From an uncultured virus (IMG/VR IMGVR_UViG_3300031669_000004) (Duplodnaviria; Heunggongvirae; Uroviricota; Caudoviricetes), in the IMG/VR virus record IMGVR_UViG_3300031669_000004: a stretch of 64,000 nt of DNA. One strand, written 5' to 3'. The notes below the pieces were generated by a model. That model did no database searches, was not told the DNA's origin, and saw only the letters and a program-made list of their open reading frames with translations. Shown here one piece after another: positions 5,000 through 24,965 of the stretch. How positions within the stretch are numbered: the stretch's first letter is position 1; every line of letters starts with the position of its first letter. A program made the position numbers and the translations under genes.

Positions 5000-6970
5000 T
5001 TATATTGCGCTCACAGAAGTGACCAGTGAATTTAATTTGAATATGGCGGTACTATCGTTAGGTACTAATACATCGGTTATACTACCAGTAGTAGGACTAA
5101 ATAAATCCTTCCAGTATTTGGTGTACCCTATTTGTAGAGGTGTTTGTATAGTAGTAATCCCCGCAGCGTATAGCTCCGATAAAAGATCGGCCATGATAAA
5201 AGCTTGCCCTGGGGCTAACGAGGCCAAATAGGTTTGTACTACAGTAGACGCCGTCTGTTGACTAGGGGCCGTTATACCGTACCCTACAATTGACACATCT
5301 AGCATTATCAAATTAAATCCTCTGGCCAACGGGTCAGCACATAACACCTTATTGGCTGGATCTACTAGATAGGTTTGTATCCCATCTAGTCCTTGTATGT
5401 AAGAAATATTTAAACTCACGCTTTGACTAGCCCACATAGCCTGGGCAGTAGCAGTAGTGTACGTTATAGTTCCTGGTGAGGAAGTGCTATTAAAAGTATA
5501 CTGGAAGGTATTCGTCGTCACGCTACTAATTGGATAATTACCGTTGCCGGCCGATAATCCAGTTATAGTTATTATATTACCTAATGAATACCCGTGACCC
5601 GGCACCGTCACAGTGACCACTGTGGTATACGTACCTGTAGTAACTGAGGATACAGCTGTGACGGATTTTACTGGCCCGGCAAAATTCAGATCTAATATTT
5701 GTCTAGGGGAAAATCCAACTTCATTTGGTCTGCTAACTCTTTGTAGATTAAATATACCAGTAGCCGGGGTTACAGGTGTCCCAGCAACAACATAAGTAAA
5801 TGAGGAGTCACTTAATACTGAGGCTACTTGGAAGGTGCCATTATAAGCCGATTGATCAGCCCCAGACATTATAAATCTCTCACCCACGCTTAGCCCATGT
5901 TGGGCGTAGGTTACTGTAGCCACTCCAGCGGAACTAGTCAAAGCAGTTGGTAACACTGAATCTAGATAGTTATTCGTGGAAGTGTACGGTGTCCCAACCA
6001 GTATAGTATCTGCGTTAGGGCCACCAGCTGTACCCGATATAGCTGTTTTATAGATCGGCCCTGTAAGTTGCAGCTTACCCGTAGTGTCAGTGGTAAATTG
6101 TACTAGTGAGGAAGTTAACGGGGTGTTGCAGTATATGTCCATAGCCGATCCTATATGTATCCATATAGGGTATGGCACAATACTTGGTGCAACCTCAACA
6201 GCGTCTCTTATCATACTTGTATCCCCCATACCAATAGAGGTTATTTGGGAAATTATAGGAAATGCAGACGTAAGGTTACTGGTTATAGAGGGTGTATTTA
6301 TAAGGTTTCTAGTAGATATACTGGTACTAGCCCTGGATATAAACTGTGTATTGGTCTCTACGTTATTAGCCGTAGAACTAAGATAGTTTATTTCCGCATG
6401 TAAAAAATAAGGATTAAAGTTTGAGAAATATATTAAGGAGCCGCTTGATAGATTATATGATGTACCTGCTGCTGCTGCCACTAGGTTTACCGACAGGTAG
6501 TATTGACCAGATGATGGATCAAATACTAGCTGGCTAGCAGGATAAGTGGCAGATGTAATAGGATAGTACATTAAAACGTTATCTGGGGAAAAGTACAAAT
6601 CAGTAGAAAGAGTAACACTCAATGCCTTGGCAAAGTATAATCTGACGTTAATCACGGCATTAGCCCCAGCGTACCTGGTCATAAAGAAGTTAGATAACAT
6701 CTTATCCACGAATACTGTAGGGGTAGAATCGGTTACATTGGTCAAGGAATTCTGTGTCCAGTAATAAACTAAAGCCTTGTTTATAGTAGCCAGCAGAGTG
6801 GCGTTGGGACGCACAGCTAGATCACGTATGGCTGTTCCAGTACGTAAGTCTAAGGTTGGGTCTTGGGCAGCTAATACTTGGGTTAGAAGTAGTTCCGCTT
6901 GGAGAATATCCGATGAGGTTACTTGTATCCCACTTATTACTGATAATAGGTCGATGCTTGAGGTTGCCAT
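5000..6970 (-). CDS. Baseplate wedge subunit (baseplate J / T4 gp6-like)
   Basis: DLRTGTAIRDLAVRP N-terminus, AAAAGTSYNL and ETNTQFISRA segments typical of baseplate J; next to a gp25-like gene. Confidence 0.75.
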   Translation of the reverse strand: MATSSIDLLSVISGIQVTSSDILQAELLLTQVLAAQDPTLDLRTGTAIRDLAVRPNATLLATINKALVYYWTQNSLTNVTDSTPTVFVDKMLSNFFMTRYAGANAVINVRLYFAKALSVTLSTDLYFSPDNVLMYYPITSATYPASQLVFDPSSGQYYLSVNLVAAAAGTSYNLSSGSLIYFSNFNPYFLHAEINYLSSTANNVETNTQFISRASTSISTRNLINTPSITSNLTSAFPIISQITSIGMGDTSMIRDAVEVAPSIVPYPIWIHIGSAMDIYCNTPLTSSLVQFTTDTTGKLQLTGPIYKTAISGTAGGPNADTILVGTPYTSTNNYLDSVLPTALTSSAGVATVTYAQHGLSVGERFIMSGADQSAYNGTFQVASVLSDSSFTYVVAGTPVTPATGIFNLQRVSRPNEVGFSPRQILDLNFAGPVKSVTAVSSVTTGTYTTVVTVTVPGHGYSLGNIITITGLSAGNGNYPISSVTTNTFQYTFNSTSSPGTITYTTATAQAMWASQSVSLNISYIQGLDGIQTYLVDPANKVLCADPLARGFNLIMLDVSIVGYGITAPSQQTASTVVQTYLASLAPGQAFIMADLLSELYAAGITTIQTPLQIGYTKYWKDLFSPTTGSITDVLVPNDSTAIFKLNSLVTSVSAI

Positions 6971-17644: not shown

Positions 17645-19237
17645 TCAACCAGTGGTTTCTACGTAGACATACTGTCCTACCAAGACCATCCATGCTGTAT
17701 GCGCAAACACAACCGAGTGAGCCCAGTCATCGCAGGCAGTTTCATCCTTCCGGTATACGCGTCTCCCAGCCAAGGTTTCTTCTTCGTAAAGGGCTAAGGC
17801 ATCCTTCCAAAAATCTGATGTGAGATTCCAGCAGGGTGTCACAAACTTAGTTGGACCTAGTTTCATTCTCAGTATTGAGGTATCCATTATCATTGTTCTA
17901 TCGGCGCTTAGATACTTCCCACCAGTATCGTATCTCAAAGGTATTTTGGCCGCAGTATACTGCACCATACAAACCCTATCAAGTCCAAGAGATTGTTCTA
18001 GTAATTGTCCTTGAAGAACACCAACACCTCTATCAGAGTGAAGACGTTGACAACCAAATTGCATGAATAGATTTTCGACCCTTTTAACTTGGTCTAGTAT
18101 ATCCACTCCATTTAATCTCTCAGTGTACATTAGGTAACACTTACCACTATAATCATAGCCTAGTATAGAAATTACCGTATACGACTTAGTTGAAGATGTG
18201 GTACTCCAATCCACACCCATAACTACAGAAACAATATTCCTGGAATCTCTAGCCCAACCTAAGTCAAAGGAAGTCTTAGATGGATCGCAGCAAGCCATGG
18301 CTTCCATCTCAGATAGTATTCTGCCACCAACACCGGCCGCAAGACCAAAGACCTCGTTAGCCACTTTTGCTGGGGCGTAGTTCTGAATAGCTAATTGTAA
18401 GTCTTTCCATTTCTTTGGATCTATACGAGCTTCTAGAACATGTCTAGGTATATGGAAGGACAGATGGTCTTTTTCAAGGGGGCGTGCCATAGCCCACTGG
18501 CCGTTCTCTACACTGATAGGTTTGCCACAATGATAACAAATAGGTCCTGTAGGGGAATCACACATGGCCAAGCAGTTTTCGATAGTATTAGGTATATTCC
18601 ACTTACTACAGTGGCCGCACTTCATAACCCATTCACCACCAGAGCCACGATTAAATAGTATCTCTAAAGCATTATTTATATTCTTAGCTGTACCGTAGTG
18701 GCGCTTGAACGCATAGTCAGATGCTGAGAGAGTTTCATACAGAACTGGTAGTGCTTCTATGGCTACGTCTTGAACCTCGTCGTATGCTACCATATCACAA
18801 GAGGCTCCTCTTATTCTATTCATATCGTCTTCGGTTTGAGCATACGACAGGAATATTATAGATCCATTTGAAAACTCTTTCATAAAGATATTGGCGGCAT
18901 CTCCATGTTTTTTAAAGTATTTCTTTACAAGGGGAGACTCCGTGAACGGCCCAAGATAAAGTTTACTAAATCTACTAGTTTGAATAGCCAATGGTGATAC
19001 GAATATAGAGTTAAAGAAAGGTCTGGCCACCCCTTTAGAAACTAAGATAGCTCCAATAGATACCGATTTTCCTATCTGTCTGCAACACTTAACAGACATC
19101 ATAGGTGGGTCGGCATCGTAAATTGCCTCCAGGGGTTTGTAGCCTTTGAGGGAGAAATTCTTCCCCTTGAAATTTAATATTGAACGGGCGACCTCTGAGG
19201 TGGTTAGGGATACTATGCTAGGTGTAGGATCGGTCAT
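17645..19237 (-). CDS. terL: Terminase large subunit
   Basis: Walker A CRQIGKS, Walker B VAYDEVQD, Cys-rich insert, RNase H-like MGVDW and DDWAHS. Confidence 0.9.
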   Translation of the reverse strand: MTDPTPSIVSLTTSEVARSILNFKGKNFSLKGYKPLEAIYDADPPMMSVKCCRQIGKSVSIGAILVSKGVARPFFNSIFVSPLAIQTSRFSKLYLGPFTESPLVKKYFKKHGDAANIFMKEFSNGSIIFLSYAQTEDDMNRIRGASCDMVAYDEVQDVAIEALPVLYETLSASDYAFKRHYGTAKNINNALEILFNRGSGGEWVMKCGHCSKWNIPNTIENCLAMCDSPTGPICYHCGKPISVENGQWAMARPLEKDHLSFHIPRHVLEARIDPKKWKDLQLAIQNYAPAKVANEVFGLAAGVGGRILSEMEAMACCDPSKTSFDLGWARDSRNIVSVVMGVDWSTTSSTKSYTVISILGYDYSGKCYLMYTERLNGVDILDQVKRVENLFMQFGCQRLHSDRGVGVLQGQLLEQSLGLDRVCMVQYTAAKIPLRYDTGGKYLSADRTMIMDTSILRMKLGPTKFVTPCWNLTSDFWKDALALYEEETLAGRRVYRKDETACDDWAHSVVFAHTAWMVLVGQYVYVETTG

Positions 19238-19862
19238 TATTAAGTAGTCTGCAGTTTTTAAAATGGTAGCGTTTCATATTTCTATCCCCACCTAGTTTTT
19301 TACAATGTGGGCACTGTGTAAGATCCTGTTTTTTCCCCATTCTATATTCTGACATTTTCTTACGGGTTTCCTCCGATAAAACTATTCCTATCCTTGCCGC
19401 GGACATTTTTAATTTAGACTCAGCAGAATGTGGCTTACCTTTACGCGGTGAGGGTTTACCTTTCTTAGCCATAGATAACTTTACCCTATGGCTTGTAGAT
19501 AACGGCCTACCTTTACTTGTTATAGATACACCCTTCTTGGACTCTGATATTTTCCGCTTTGTTTCATCTGAATGCCGAAGTCCAGAGACCCCTTCCCCAC
19601 CGTCAGTTACGTTAACTAGATTAAACCCTTCTTTCCTAAGTTGAGAAATTTGCTGTATTTCATCCAGCAATGCCAGTTCCTCTGACTCGCATTCAAAGAT
19701 ATAAACCGATATACTGTTCTTTCCATACTTTAGTACGGTTCTCTTGTAGTGGGGGTTACGGTTACTATTAAAATCGTAGGCCCTATTGCGGTACCCCTTA
19801 CCGACGTAAAAGGGTTCCCCATTTGGTCTACAATGTATATAAGTATAAAAGGTATCAGTCAT
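19218..19862 (-). CDS. Free-standing GIY-YIG homing endonuclease with NUMOD3-like repeats
   Basis: FYTYIH...FYVGKG, NVTDGGEG, repeated HSxETKxK(I/M)S motifs; start set at the second ATG (19862). Confidence 0.85.
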   Translation of the reverse strand: MTDTFYTYIHCRPNGEPFYVGKGYRNRAYDFNSNRNPHYKRTVLKYGKNSISVYIFECESEELALLDEIQQISQLRKEGFNLVNVTDGGEGVSGLRHSDETKRKISESKKGVSITSKGRPLSTSHRVKLSMAKKGKPSPRKGKPHSAESKLKMSAARIGIVLSEETRKKMSEYRMGKKQDLTQCPHCKKLGGDRNMKRYHFKNCRLLNNDRSYT

Positions 19863-19868
19863 ATACAT

Positions 19869-20016: not shown

Positions 20017-20211
20017 ATGAACACAATCGTAGTTATCTCCACATCCGGTCAAGAATACACACTGCCAGGTACCACTTGGACTCCTGAGCAAGTTGTTAAC
20101 ACATACGCCTCTTCTGTTCCCGGCATCGGCTCCATGACTTCAGAAGTCACAACCGACGCTAACGGCGACAAACGTATCACCTTCCGTCCTCGCACTGGCA
20201 CCAAGGGCTAA
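20017..20211 (+). CDS. Ubiquitin-like (beta-grasp) modifier, PRTRC protein C-like
   Basis: 64 aa ending FRPRTGTKG; AAGGA RBS; upstream of E2, JAB and E1 genes; codon choice resembles the capsid gene. Confidence 0.8.
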   Translation: MNTIVVISTSGQEYTLPGTTWTPEQVVNTYASSVPGIGSMTSEVTTDANGDKRITFRPRTGTKG

Positions 20212-20358: not shown

Positions 20359-21027
20359 ATGATAAACACAACTAGTACTTTTAATGACTGGCTGACTACA
20401 CGTTCTAAAGCCCTTTCCGATTCAATATTCGTTACCAGGATGAAGGATGCTTCCTTCCTCTTTTTAACAAAATGTAAGCTAGTCACTAAGAGTTTTCAAG
20501 GTATTACTTTCTCAAGCCTTTCTCCAGGTGGCCATCTACCGTTGGAAGTCAAGAAGATACATAGGATAATACTTATTAATCTTCGTAAGAAATTCCCTAC
20601 CCTAAAGAGTGGTAACGAGGATTATGAAGCACCCTTCATCCATTACTATAATAGAGCCAACTGTATGTATATATACCTGATGTATACTCCAAGTATGGAG
20701 CGTATCATAGAAAGATACTTCAGGTATATCAAGATGAACGCATACTTAGTTGATAACCAAATACCACTGGTGTTCGATTATAGAGAGGATCTTGTCAACG
20801 CTGGACAGGGTACATGCAGGGTGTTAAGGCTAAAGTTTAACAACAGCTCTGGGCATAATGGTATACATCATTATAAGTTAGTATTTTTTATTCCCCAGAT
20901 GATAAAGGTATTATCAACCCTCCATAGAAAGGCCACTTTTAAACATGTCGAATTACCAAGCGCAACAAGTGAATCAAGCCCTGCCGGGACAACCAGTGAC
21001 GATAGAGTTGATGGGATTATCTTCTGA
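20359..21027 (+). CDS. Hypothetical protein in the Ubl cassette
   Basis: 222-aa ORF with AGGGG RBS. Confidence 0.65.
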   Translation: MINTTSTFNDWLTTRSKALSDSIFVTRMKDASFLFLTKCKLVTKSFQGITFSSLSPGGHLPLEVKKIHRIILINLRKKFPTLKSGNEDYEAPFIHYYNRANCMYIYLMYTPSMERIIERYFRYIKMNAYLVDNQIPLVFDYREDLVNAGQGTCRVLRLKFNNSSGHNGIHHYKLVFFIPQMIKVLSTLHRKATFKHVELPSATSESSPAGTTSDDRVDGIIF

Positions 21028-21310
21028 GGTAACATCTATCAGCAGTTCGGTGGCAGCTAAAGAAAATGGATTTGAGGTAGATGAGCTACTTAGGAAAGCC
21101 CCTGAAGTTGGGGATAAGTTCACCTCCTTAATAACCAGGGGGTTAACTATGCCTTTAGAAAACCTGGAAGATGTATTAGGGTTTTCTAAGGTTATGACTG
21201 AGTTAATTGAGCAAAATTATGCAACCCTACCGCATATCTGGACCATAACGGAAGATATAAAAAGAGCTAATTATTATAGTGGATTAAGTTTAGAGGACGA
21301 TTACATATGA
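20945..21310 (+). CDS. Hypothetical acidic protein in the Ubl cassette
   Basis: 121-aa ORF; ATGA overlap with the E2 gene. Confidence 0.6.
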   Translation: MSNYQAQQVNQALPGQPVTIELMGLSSEVTSISSSVAAKENGFEVDELLRKAPEVGDKFTSLITRGLTMPLENLEDVLGFSKVMTELIEQNYATLPHIWTITEDIKRANYYSGLSLEDDYI

Positions 21311-22101
21311 CAACAGAATTTGAACAACTGGGTATATTATTAGGTGGTAAAACCGACAGAATAGACGTAGAGAAAGCATTAAAGGAGTTCTATAGACAAA
21401 CCCACCCAGTGGCTTCATCTGCTAGGGTAGAAGCCCTACCAGTTATATTAAGCAAAACCCACGTTACTACTTTAGTTGACGGCGTCCCTAAAGCAATATC
21501 AATATCCGATTTCAAAGGCGTAATTAATGCTATGACATCGGAAGATGAAGAGAAGGTTCCTCCTATAAGTCTACCGTATGGCTGCTTTATGTTTAATAGA
21601 TCAGGGGAACATCTATACTTGAACTGTTACTATAGAGGTACTGTTAGCGAACTTAAGTTTAACAACAGGGATGGTAAGAAGAATAAGTATATGGTACCCC
21701 TTCCCCATGTAATTATCTCCTTCACCCTTAAAAAGGTGAACGATAGTATCTGGCAGGTAATGTTGGTTAAGTACCTCAGTACATCTAAGAGCGTGTCCCA
21801 ATTACCAGATAACATATTCTTCAACAAACCGCAAGGGGAGCATGGTATACACAAATTTCCTTTCCCAAATATGTACTCTGACGACAAGATGTGCTACGGA
21901 GGTAACACTATGCCAGTTAGATTCACCAATAACCTCAGGGGGCTGGACTACTATTACCAGATAATAACACAGGCACCTTTCAATTCCGATCTTGGGGTTA
22001 ATGGCCTAACGCAGAGTTTTACCCCAGAGCATTGGTTTACTCATCTGTCTGGTATGAAAGAATTCCCGTATGATTTGCTTAGTAACATAAACTACAATTA
22101 A
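21307..22101 (+). CDS. Prokaryotic E2-like conjugating enzyme (Prok-E2 D / PRTRC protein B-like)
   Basis: VPLPHVI and PFPNMYSDDKMCYGGN with candidate catalytic Cys; PFNSDL motif; gene context. Confidence 0.75.
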   Translation: MTTEFEQLGILLGGKTDRIDVEKALKEFYRQTHPVASSARVEALPVILSKTHVTTLVDGVPKAISISDFKGVINAMTSEDEEKVPPISLPYGCFMFNRSGEHLYLNCYYRGTVSELKFNNRDGKKNKYMVPLPHVIISFTLKKVNDSIWQVMLVKYLSTSKSVSQLPDNIFFNKPQGEHGIHKFPFPNMYSDDKMCYGGNTMPVRFTNNLRGLDYYYQIITQAPFNSDLGVNGLTQSFTPEHWFTHLSGMKEFPYDLLSNINYN

Positions 22102-22113
22102 GGAGAAACTGTA

Positions 22114-22590
22114 ATGAGAGAACTAATACCGCACGTTTGCTGCTTGTGCACACCTGAAGAGTTTGACGAAGTGGTTAAAGCTAATACACATGCTGAAGTA
22201 TATGTACAAGATGGTACTGGGTACCTTAAGCATGTCAAACTCAGCGGGGGTAGACACGTACGTATCAAGGTGGATAAGCTACCAGCAGCCGCAGCTGCGA
22301 TTATAGCGCCAACAGTAGAAGTTAAGGAAGACCTTAACTTTCTTCCGGCCGGTAAGATACCATACGAGTTCTTCGAACAAATCGTGGAATTCTTCCGTCA
22401 AGTAAGTAAGAAGATGAAGTCAGACTTCGAAGCTCATACATGGATTCTCTGGACTCCAGAACGTGGTTACTTTATCTCTGTTCCTAAGCAGAGTGTGAGT
22501 AAAGCCTCTGTGAGTTTTACGTATGATGATGAGAGCCTTCCACCAGGAAGCGTAATCGTCTGTGATATTCATTCGCATAATACCATGGGT
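22114..22590 (+). CDS. JAB/JAMM metallopeptidase, exon 1
   Basis: KIP...EAHTWI...VPKQSVSKASV...DIHSHNTMG; the JAMM motif is completed in exon 2. Confidence 0.88.
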
Positions 22591-22863
22591 AGATATTATT
22601 CTTAAAAAGAAAGTGCTCATGTAAAACCTGAAGAATTGCTGGAAACCCCACGGGGCAATCAGCAGCCGAGCCTCATAGTAGAGGAAGGTTCAGAGACTAT
22701 CGAAAAGCAATCGAAAGATTGAACTTAGTAGAGTACGCAGAAGTCTGCGGAAGCCTCAGGCATCGAAAGATGAAGATATAGTCCAATACCACGAATCGAC
22801 GTTACAGATTCAATACCGAAAGGGTGGATTTAAACCTAACGAGTTTAAACGTAATGAGTAGAG
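22591..22863 (+). mobile_element. Group I self-splicing intron (273 nt, no homing endonuclease ORF)
   Basis: P AATTGCTGGAAA 22634, Q AATCAGCAGCC 22657, R GTTCAGAGACTA 22688, S AAGATATAGTCC 22773; exon 1 ends in U and the intron in G; P1 and P10 pairings visible. Confidence 0.95.
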
Positions 22864-23628
22864 GCTTTCTACTCCGGAACAGATGACAACAACGATAAGT
22901 CTGGGATTTACTACTCAGCCGTTATCGGTAAATTAACGGAGACAACATTTGAATATGTAATACGTTTTAACTTGTATGAACAAAAGAAGAAATGTACTTT
23001 GGATGAGGTGTTCGATATACAAACAAAAAAGCCGGAAGTCCCACAGGCTTGGCTGGATCAAGTTGATAATAGACCTACCTCTTCTGTAGTTGTGTTACCC
23101 GGCCCAGGCTTTGGGAAAGGCCGTCGTCAAATGGGCCCTAGTCAGCAATCTGGATTATGGGACCAACGTGCACATGCGGATAATAACTATGGTCCATTTG
23201 GGTATCGGGAACTTGACCCTGCGTTCTTGCAGATGGCTGCAGATCAAGCTAAAGGAAGGAATGGTGGTAAAAAGAATCAAACAAAAAAAGGCATTCCCCA
23301 GGATGGACAAGAAAGTTCTGACATCTTCGTACCTGGGCCACAAGATCTTCATGTAGCTATGGCGAATGGTGAGGAACTCACTAGAAGTCAGATGCTTGCT
23401 TGTGGTTTTGACGTAGATGATACCCCAGGAGAGTTTGACGATTTGGACGACTTTGAGGGGTATGGTGAGTTATATGGTGGTGAAGCTTTAGAGGCCTTTA
23501 AGTTAATCGATGACTTCATCGTAAACTTGGAAAGCTGCGACAAGGCACTGCTCGATGTTATTCAACAAGCGTATGGTTTACTGACCTCTGAAGGACAGGC
23601 TAAGTTGGCCCAAGAAGGTCTGAGATAA
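22864..23628 (+). CDS. JAB/JAMM metallopeptidase, exon 2 (spliced product 413 aa)
   Basis: Begins AFYSGTDD, restoring HSHNTMGAFYSGTDD; in frame with the listed ORF 22972..23628. Confidence 0.88.
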   Translation, partial: AFYSGTDDNNDKSGIYYSAVIGKLTETTFEYVIRFNLYEQKKKCTLDEVFDIQTKKPEVPQAWLDQVDNRPTSSVVVLPGPGFGKGRRQMGPSQQSGLWDQRAHADNNYGPFGYRELDPAFLQMAADQAKGRNGGKKNQTKKGIPQDGQESSDIFVPGPQDLHVAMANGEELTRSQMLACGFDVDDTPGEFDDLDDFEGYGELYGGEALEAFKLIDDFIVNLESCDKALLDVIQQAYGLLTSEGQAKLAQEGLR

Positions 23629-23693: not shown

Positions 23694-24965
23694 ATGTTAT
23701 TTAAATGGACCCCCAACTTTGTGCCAAACAAAGTGTTTATTTTTGGGTGTGGTGGGACAGGCAGTAGAGTTGTACCGTTGGTAGCACAGTTTATGAAGTC
23801 CTGTCCATGGGTTGTTAACCCAGAAATAGTACTTGTTGACTTTGATACCGTAGAAGAAAAGAATCTGCTAAGGCAGAACTTCATTCAGTCTGATGTTGGC
23901 AAAAATAAAGCGATAGTACTAGCAAGCAGGTACTCAAGGGCTTTTAATATCACTATAACTCCACTTATCACAAAGGTAACAAGGAACTGGAAGACAGATG
24001 CAGAGAGTTCCACCTTGGAGAGATTCGTGGGTATGATAGAGAGTAACGATAGACGTAATAATCTGTTTATATTATGTGTGGATTCTCCAAATGCAAGACG
24101 GGACATTGTCAATTGCATTCTAACCTACGCAGGTCAAAATCCTTATAACCTAATCATAGACGCTGGTAACGAAAACGACTTTGGACAGGTTGTCGTAAGT
24201 AGTACGCAAGGTATGGATACTGGGTCGTATGATAGAGGTATGTTGGAAAAATTAAAACAGGAAGTGCCGGTGGAATTGGGATTACCTTTTATACCTATGA
24301 ATCCAGCTTACTTCGATGAGATGCAAACCGTTTCAACTCCAAGTTGTGCAGAGTTGGATCAAACTATGGCTATCAATACACTGATGGCTGTAAATATCTT
24401 CGGCATAATCCAAAACATATATTATGTTAAACCTATGTCATTCTATAGGATTGATGTGAGTATGCAGTATGGTTCTATACCACAACAAATAACCGTGCAC
24501 TCTTTAAAGGCTTGTACTAATAAAACTAATAGGGAAGATAAGGTTGGCGGTACTCTAAGAAGGTTCCAGTTCCATGGTGATCTACAGAAACTGTATCGTA
24601 TGCAAGAGGAATTCCTTATTACGAGAGATATAGCGGAAAGGGAGGCTGCTAGAAAACGCGAGAGAGAAGCTAAAGAGGCAGCTGATAAATTGGCTAAAGA
24701 TCATGCTGCTATAATCAAAAAGGTTAAGGAGAATGACGCTGAACCTGCTTCAACTTTGGGAGAGATGCTTAAGAAGAAAATGACTAGTAAGGTGGATGAG
24801 GTGGACAACATTAGGCAGATAGACACTGTGTTGGGACGTCTCGCTGCATTAGATTCTACTGGGGTAATAAATTTGGCAGAGATGGTCAATGCTACAACAG
24901 CAACAAATGCAAGTGTAGTGGGTGGAGCAATACCTGCGGCACCAGCTGGACGAGCAAGGCGTTAA
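23694..24965 (+). CDS. ThiF/E1-like ubiquitin-activating enzyme with a C-terminal extension
   Basis: GCGGTG loop, DFDTVEEKNLLRQNF, GKNKA, CVDSPNARR, DAGN and PSCAE (candidate catalytic Cys). Confidence 0.9.
   Translation: MLFKWTPNFVPNKVFIFGCGGTGSRVVPLVAQFMKSCPWVVNPEIVLVDFDTVEEKNLLRQNFIQSDVGKNKAIVLASRYSRAFNITITPLITKVTRNWKTDAESSTLERFVGMIESNDRRNNLFILCVDSPNARRDIVNCILTYAGQNPYNLIIDAGNENDFGQVVVSSTQGMDTGSYDRGMLEKLKQEVPVELGLPFIPMNPAYFDEMQTVSTPSCAELDQTMAINTLMAVNIFGIIQNIYYVKPMSFYRIDVSMQYGSIPQQITVHSLKACTNKTNREDKVGGTLRRFQFHGDLQKLYRMQEEFLITRDIAEREAARKREREAKEAADKLAKDHAAIIKKVKENDAEPASTLGEMLKKKMTSKVDEVDNIRQIDTVLGRLAALDSTGVINLAEMVNATTATNASVVGGAIPAAPAGRARR

Follow-up and report, generated by a model that had tools for sequence, protein, structure and literature searches.

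A predicted self-splicing group I intron at a crowded insertion target in the JAMM codons of a phage ubiquitin-like operon

The JAB/JAMM peptidase gene of an uncultured Caudoviricetes phage (IMG/VR record IMGVR_UViG_3300031669_000004) is split within its active-site motif by a 273-nt element that we predict, from its sequence, to be a self-splicing group I intron. The window, meaning the whole stretch of DNA analyzed here, comprises 64,000 nt of a full virus record of 118,896 bases that CheckV estimates to be ~65% complete. The intron itself is of known type, and what is new is the intron hotspot at the JAMM codons, which are interrupted in other phages as well. Taken together, the evidence indicates that the element is probably not a control switch but a familiar selfish intron whose target is unusually crowded.

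Anatomy and splice junction of the intron

The split gene and the pairings of the predicted intron are as follows.

22114..22590, plus strand: exon 1, JAB/JAMM peptidase (PRTRC protein A-like), 159 codons, with catalytic Glu106, His153, and His155
22591..22863, plus strand: predicted group I intron of 273 nt with no ORF, IA2-like but lacking P2 (RF00028 61.8 bits, helices, fold z -2.68)
22864..23628, plus strand: exon 2, 254 codons, with Ser163 and Asp166, a disordered central region, and a helical C-terminal portion
22584-22590 (CATGGGT, exon) with 22615-22621 (GCTCATG, guide), plus strand: P1, 7 pairs, U.G at the 5' splice site
22603..22605, plus strand: TAA, first in-frame stop, in the P1 loop; the unspliced product has 163 aa and lacks Ser163 and Asp166
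22608-22614 (AGAAAGT) with 22864-22870 (GCTTTCT, exon 2), plus strand: P10, 7 pairs, stacked directly on P1
22627-22633 with 22754-22760, plus strand: P3, 6 of 7 pairs, enclosing P4, P5, P6, and P6a
22637-42 with 22659-64, plus strand: P4, within P3 (Rfam, helix count)
22693-22699 with 22779-22784, plus strand: P7, with a bulged A and the G-C guanosine-binding pair
22708-22721, 22736-22749, and 22761-22772, plus strand: P7.1, P7.2, and P8 (Rfam, helix count)
22799..22852, plus strand: 3' domain, a P9.1 stem around two hairpins (P9.1a/b and P9.2), common to the gut-phage introns

An Rfam scan of the window matched the group I model RF00028 at 22560-22803 (61.8 bits, E 3e-13, gathering threshold 50), the sole gathering-level Rfam match in the 64,000 nt, and the model matched nowhere else in the 118,896-base record. 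A preliminary description of this DNA, made from the letters alone, had called a group I intron spliced at 22590|22864 and had suggested a covariance scan; the above-threshold match, P1 and P10, the core helices, and the terminal G (the last intron base, G22863) all bear it out. Its coordinates proved exact throughout (CATGGGT at 22584-22590, TAA at 22603-22605, AGAAAGT, GCTCATG, G22863, and GCTTTCT at 22864-22870). Two hairpins, P7.1 and P7.2, separate P7 from the 3' strand of P3, an arrangement that we take to be the defining feature of subgroup IA2 and that therefore indicates this subgroup.

Among 83 frame-restoring junctions with U/G ends, 22590|22864 ranked first with 14 pairs (runner-up, 11), and it was the only one of the top eight to restore HxH-x7-S-x2-D. 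P1 and P10 were both present in 0 of 100,000 shuffles of the intron's first 45 bases. The intron is 91 codons long and both exons share one frame, so that a frame-breaking junction, the outcome that would have told against the earlier call, was not found: joining the exons yields a 413-aa frame in which E106, H153, H155, S163, and D166 stand together, and the JAMM motif is regained across the junction. Following established group I chemistry, from which we infer the splicing steps, guanosine bound in P7 would attack the U.G pair of P1, P10 would then align exon 2 for ligation, and self-splicing would restore the peptidase reading frame. Ribosomes would be parked at the early stop during intron folding, which, according to the part of PMC3984707 available to us, such an in-frame stop may assist.

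As anticipated in the preliminary description, the ORF list splits the gene into two false ORFs (22114-22605 and 22972-23628), and the truncated 163-aa product that ends at 22603..22605 is listed as P0121 in the protein collection. The ORF list has no ORF of at least 50 aa inside the 273-nt intron and thus no homing endonuclease ORF within it. A strong ribosome-binding site (TAAGGAG) precedes exon 1, and a promoter and terminator scan returned chance-level counts (14 versus 12.1; 6 versus 4.3). Splicing would be unneeded if the stop were read through, if the phage used an alternative code, or if two halves were translated separately, and an intron length that is a multiple of three, together with internal TTG or ATG codons that could start the downstream ORF, is compatible with such schemes. 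However, the ten in-frame stops within the intron are of all three kinds (5 TAA, 2 TAG, 3 TGA), which excludes recoding, and the first downstream start lies 36 codons beyond the junction, so that Ser163 and Asp166 would be present in neither half-product. We regard expression without splicing as extremely unlikely.

The host gene and its operon

The earlier suggestion to look for intron-less alleles was fruitful. P0117, a protein from an intron-less gene, is 84% identical to exon 1 (residues 1-159) and 62% identical to exon 2 (from residue 160), and it aligns gap-free across G159|A160. Over the initial 41 residues encoded by exon 2, the two sequences hardly differ. On the TIGR03735 profile, exon 1 covers positions 16-146 and exon 2 positions 148-188. 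The JAMM/MPN+ pattern, given as E-xn-H-S/T-H-x7-S-xx-D in the part of PMC300881 available to us, was matched in its strict form by 118 of 120 homologues. The predicted structure of P0117 (mean pLDDT 75) has a JAMM (MPN) fold, with Rpn11, AMSH, archaeal JAMM1, and a bacterial Ubl deubiquitinase as top Foldseek matches and 8tyx also among the matches. P0117 passes the Prok-JAB model (32.5 bits, cut-off 25); with the JAB protein as the query, a PDB sequence search returned nothing relevant and a PHROGs search no match.

The following genes surround the peptidase.

17645..19237, minus strand: terminase large subunit (TerL), 48% identical to that of Salmonella phage Arash
19218..19868, minus strand: free-standing GIY-YIG/NUMOD3 endonuclease adjoining terL, a candidate for moving the intron in trans
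20017..20211, plus strand: prokaryotic ubiquitin-like protein (Ubl; Prok_Ub E 0.003, below cut-off) with a free C-terminal Gly
20359-21027 and 20945-21310, plus strand: two operon genes of unknown family, without Pfam, PHROG, or NCBIfam match
21307..22101, plus strand: E2-like protein (Prok-E2_D E 0.0014, below cut-off; a relative passes at 35.2 bits)
23694..24965, plus strand: E1-like ThiF protein (PF00899 49.4 bits; TIGR03736 80.5 bits, below cut-off)

The operon thus runs Ubl, two unknown genes, E2-like, JAB, and E1-like. TerL is ~41% identical to those of three Vibrio phages of 187 kb, and its 48% identity to that of Arash places the record in the Arash clade. In nearly all of the 43 mapped loci (several of them near-copies), the E2-like and JAB genes are adjacent, and Ubl, E1, and terL mostly accompany them, and the Ubl-E2-JAB-E1 operon is syntenic across the Arash-like phages. 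As in the PRTRC and Prok-JAB operons (TIGR03735, TIGR03736, PF14464, PF14454, PF14460), Ubl, E2-like, JAB, and ThiF proteins are encoded together; unlike those, this is a syntenic phage locus beside terL, and we call it PRTRC-like because its proteins fall below the PRTRC cut-offs (TIGR03735, 77.4 versus 101.8; TIGR03736, 80.5 versus 144.75). A ParB-related gene in the cluster is, we assume, part of the definition of the PRTRC system, and none was identified among the operon ORFs scanned in a record that is only ~65% complete. Bacterial Ubl operons, including Bil, have the same Ubl, E2, JAB/JAMM, and E1 parts; they are host-encoded, Bil being anti-phage, whereas the present operon is phage-encoded and its Ubl needs no trimming.

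Since this Ubl already ends in a free Gly, the peptidase would more likely de-conjugate than mature its substrate, toward which only the gene neighborhood points, and the term deconjugase used in the preliminary description was fair. The Ubls of L009, L015, L027, L038, and L043 include some with residues past the terminal Gly motif or with long N-terminal parts; in those phages, JAB may therefore also trim the precursor.

Introns at the JAMM codons of other phages

The motif is broken in 5 of 54 IMG/VR loci. Four gut-phage contigs of 171-185 kb (L047, L048, L052, and L053) carry a group I intron of 307-309 nt at the same G|A site (70-75 bits), and a metagenome scan added five further contigs with same-site gut introns. 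These nine were the best of 100 comparators to the window intron (scores of 77-92; next, 67; median, 39), so that they make up one intron lineage tied to the G|A site; the exon-1 proteins of the four contigs named are only 35-41% identical to that of the window over residues 81-159. Between L048 and the window intron, nine two-sided pair changes fall in P1, P10, P6, P6a, P7.1, and P9.2, against three broken pairs in the same helices, while P4, P5, and P7 are invariant, P7 also being so in 5 of 5 gut homologues compared. Because P1, the P3 3' strand, and L121 came out misaligned in MAFFT, pairs were counted by script rather than through a formal covariation control. In the MAFFT register, P3, P7.2, P8, and P9.1a fail for the gut introns, and a 7-bp P3 appears in them only after the register is shifted by eye.

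These comparisons bear on whether the ribozyme is dead and JAB a pseudogene in this phage. An A.C mismatch in P3, a very short P5 and P8, and the lack of an ORF could be signs of decay. Yet P4, P7, J8/7, the U.G pair, and the terminal G are intact, the pair changes are compensatory, both exons are full length and open at 84% and 62% identity to the intact allele, and the start of exon 2 is nearly unchanged over 41 residues. Loss of splicing thus seems very unlikely. An assembly chimera, in which another organism's intron was joined into the gene, is suggested by foreign intron fragments that match 22633-22790 in the same soil DNA runs. Against it, the guide pairs with both exons over 7 bp each, homologous same-site introns occur in independent contigs, and one contig piece spans the stretch without differences in two of the three runs (X1 and X2), runs that may be the record's own source; we give a chimera almost no credence. 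The joined, intron-less form was not listed in any of the three runs, which is not proof of its absence, as contigs drop rare variants.

The same G|A position is occupied in a crAss-like MPN metalloprotease gene by a 243-nt group I intron (L121:2507-2749, 98 bits). Its nearest matches sit in other genes, so that a second intron lineage has reached this site. Within the gut-phage group, L045 and L046 are intron-less alleles; they have GGA at the insertion site instead of the GGT of intron-plus alleles, by which the U of the U.G pair is lost.

Two further positions are in use. The H|SH site, after the first His, is interrupted in L042 (29 bits, below threshold) and in Acinetobacter phage ME3 (KU935715), and a second ME3 intron lies at SV|D after a 36-nt exon (81 bits). 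The U.G pair, P10, and the terminal G are present at all three of these junctions. ME3 intron 1 (L010:5220-5887) contains tRNA-Met (5428-5505), tRNA-Leu (5524-5622), and a tRNA-like stretch at ~5326-5408, all three placed after the P3 5' strand and before P4. They are missing from the homologous intron of L042. The 3' part of ME3 intron 2 (L010:5924-7250) contains two zinc-finger ORFs of CapR-like type, which may be a single endonuclease gene with a frameshift. The ME3 GenBank record annotates the JAB gene as pieces and leaves the introns unannotated. Arash is intron-less, with the same codons at the insertion site.

A viral scan for the H|SH site gave 39 matches, of which only the contig of L042 and ME3 match the JAB profile, and both matches (2 of 2) of a viral scan for an HSH| site were chance. 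In the bacterial loci fetched, the motif was intact in 20 of 20, and a GTDB scan for the same-site intron gave 25 matches with none in a JAB gene by eye and RF00028 in 0 of 11 scanned. L047 also has a 270-nt insertion (L047:5772-6041) in the ATP-binding motif of its ThiF/E1 gene, with a 7-bp P1, a U.G pair, and a terminal G. This insertion, absent from L045, L048, and L052, was not recognized in an RF00028 scan and is perhaps of another group I subgroup.

Truncated homologues and their distribution

Among the matches listed for an exon-1 query, 34 homologues have 87-279 aa, counting the window's own product, and every one of them stops within the motif. The break follows the first His in 9, the second His in 12 (one assigned by eye), and HSHxxMx in 13. 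The motif was intact in 59 of 59 longer homologues, again among the matches listed. The 33 other truncated proteins probably reflect introns too. At least three insertion points within 36 bases are seen in DNA, and the proteins would add one more. At 65% identity or more, 16 of 26 other homologues were truncated, a share that may be too high, as the search for long homologues can be crowded out; the IMG/VR interruption rate of 5 in 54 is far below the share in the protein counts. The tail of P0151 resembles a translation of the gut-intron guide, and a search with the truncated P0126 found one weak, unrelated locus.

Break classes were then compared on a quick 89-row tree, in which 35 of the 86 inner branches stayed open and from which P0148 and P0186 (both too short) as well as P0155 and P0156 were left out. 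The three classes, of 13, 12, and 8 rows, required 12, 12, and 8 changes, respectively, which is what shuffled labels give; the intact rows clustered slightly more than expected by chance (8 of 500 shuffles). One 90% cluster even mixes break points (P0143 versus P0195). As intact and interrupted alleles scatter like shuffled labels, the pattern suggests repeated homing and loss, not a kept switch.

Spread of the introns and neighboring endonucleases

The introns of L048 and L053 are 98% alike with a distal exon 1 only 71% alike, those of L048 and L131 are 95% alike with exons 93% alike, and exon 1 of L047 is 92% like that of the intron-less L045. Intron identity therefore does not follow exon identity, which points to lateral movement without an intron ORF. 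Upstream exon identity rises toward the intron, but the same rise is seen against intron-less L045, so that it does not demonstrate upstream co-conversion. At the start of exon 2, four alleles with the intron are 100% alike over 30 bases, compared with 73% to the allele that lacks it, a pattern that is no more than suggestive.

Endonuclease genes of several families are found around the operon: GIY-YIG in the window, LAGLIDADG in L023, HNH in L043, and the CapR-like ORFs of ME3 intron B. Free-standing endonuclease or endonuclease-like genes, of differing families, lie at 19218-19868 of the window, L023:1163-1918, L043:5117-5659, L042:817-1485, and L001:9577-10212, on either side of the Ubl operon. 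The GIY-YIG gene is 2.7 kb upstream of the intron; it is not established as its partner, because endonuclease genes also flank the intron-less alleles L023 and L043. No association between flanking endonuclease genes and intron presence was seen, and none was found within 4 kb of the gut introns in the subset of ORFs scanned.

According to the available part of PMC3984707, conserved protein genes host phage group I introns as good endonuclease targets, and ORF-less introns can spread by collaborative homing. The present locus resembles the collaborative homing pairs described there in its ORF-less intron, its signs of lateral spread, and its free-standing endonuclease 2.7 kb away; it differs in that the window's nuclease is a candidate only and in that nearby nuclease genes also occur beside intron-less alleles. 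The simplest reading would be one endonuclease target, or overlapping ones, on the near-invariant JAMM codons. Any intron inside the target would protect its allele and be copied by repair, and ORF-less introns would ride on the nuclease of a neighboring intron or free-standing gene, or would be leftovers of such spread.

Does the intron gate the peptidase?

The preliminary description had also proposed that splicing could delay or gate deconjugase activity. This idea draws no support from the distribution of the introns, and a single hairpin that spans the 3' splice site is all that speaks for keeping it open.

22856..22874, plus strand: 7-bp hairpin in which the intron tail pairs with exon 2 (+5..+11), enclosing the 3' splice site and competing with P10

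The hairpin was found after the fact and its p-values are modest: at -7.3 kcal/mol, versus -5.8 for the P10 duplex, it has a p of ~0.02 by shuffling, and the gut introns form it in the same register, with one G-C/A-U compensatory swap, at a p of 0.07-0.24. L042 has a similar hairpin (p 0.007), and nothing above chance covers the 3' splice site of L121, ME3, or the ThiF insertion. Such a hairpin may be a general feature of phage introns.

A domesticated switch would use slow or conditional splicing to delay the peptidase so that Ubl conjugates accumulate first. In keeping with this, the third zinc ligand is missing from the unspliced product, production of E1 and E2, which are encoded outside the intron, would start at once, the hairpin is stronger than P10 and recurs with a swap, the listed homologues of at least 65% identity are often interrupted (16 of 26), and phage introns may not be neutral, as stated in section 7 of PMC3984707, a paper available to us in part. 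The comparisons set out above nonetheless run the other way, and gating as the intron's reason for being is not supported. The 84% identical allele is intact, as are the 59 long homologues; break points interleave on the tree and differ within one 90% cluster; an Rfam search extended to E 1 gave no riboswitch near the locus; in the gut phages, intron identity is out of step with exon identity; and L047 bears a further insertion in its E1 active site. Moreover, an extra hairpin in the P1 loop is not shared by the gut introns, and the 3' hairpin itself has the modest, post hoc p-values given above. We thus consider a domesticated switch unlikely. Splicing might still impose a passive delay.

In a combined version, the JAMM codons would be among the densest phage intron targets, with four positions in 36 bases, and would double as a conjugation timer by way of the 3' hairpin, which we rate as a long shot. 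If it were true, the hairpin would slow ligation and delay the de-tagging enzyme while E1 and E2 already tag, and several intron lineages at the hotspot, including the tRNA-bearing ME3 intron, would be tolerated or exploited by their phages.

Relation to known introns and implications

Among known systems, the element most closely resembles the phage IA2 introns (T4 td, nrdB, and nrdD, Twort, and the SPO1- and Felix-O1-type DNA polymerase introns). With these it shares the P1 U.G pair, P10, the P3-P7 core, P7.1/P7.2, the early in-frame stop, and insertion in conserved catalytic codons; it differs in lacking P2 and an endonuclease ORF, in its host, a JAMM peptidase of a Ubl operon, and in the three to four insertion points within 36 bases. 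Its best blastn matches in isolated phages cover the core only (44-48% of the query at 70-74% identity), mostly in DNA polymerase genes. IA2 introns make up over half of viral group I introns according to the available part of PMC11835236.

The preliminary description was right to call JAB an unusual host gene: the reviews, as far as their text was available to us, name genes for nucleotide synthesis, DNA metabolism, polymerases, and terminases. An intron in a phage JAB/MPN gene was not found described in the accessible, largely non-subscription literature, including the available parts of PMC12350094, PMC7886860, and PMC12880540, although the intron figure and one supplement file of PMC7886860 are pictures that could bear on this; the available parts of PMC11835236, PMC11601603, PMC11601596, and PMC300881 report none either. 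A new host gene is unsurprising alone, because the metagenome scan finds similar introns in many other host genes.

As homing introns persist in unchangeable codons, the hotspot would be indirect evidence that Ubl de-conjugation is conserved and important. This role would hold for Arash-like, crAss-like, and ME3-like phages, in which the operon is mostly annotated as hypothetical. Gene callers cut short many such genes, as seen in 34 of the 93 clusters listed with the exon-1 query and in the split ME3 record. Several sites in one short target offer a natural system for testing collaborative homing, and the cultured phages ME3, with two introns, and Arash, with none, are open to direct tests.

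Some minor observations can be added. The pattern scan of metagenomes yielded 100 loci (L109-L208), mostly apparent group I intron starts in other genes, where they follow, for example, RRxxIDxNG, DFDGxYG, and FYxKNPYNG. The terL gene is in two pieces at L015:129-1760. Beyond the window, the record carries a tmRNA and 22 tRNA genes (G000:87139-118562), with an HNH gene at ~93800.
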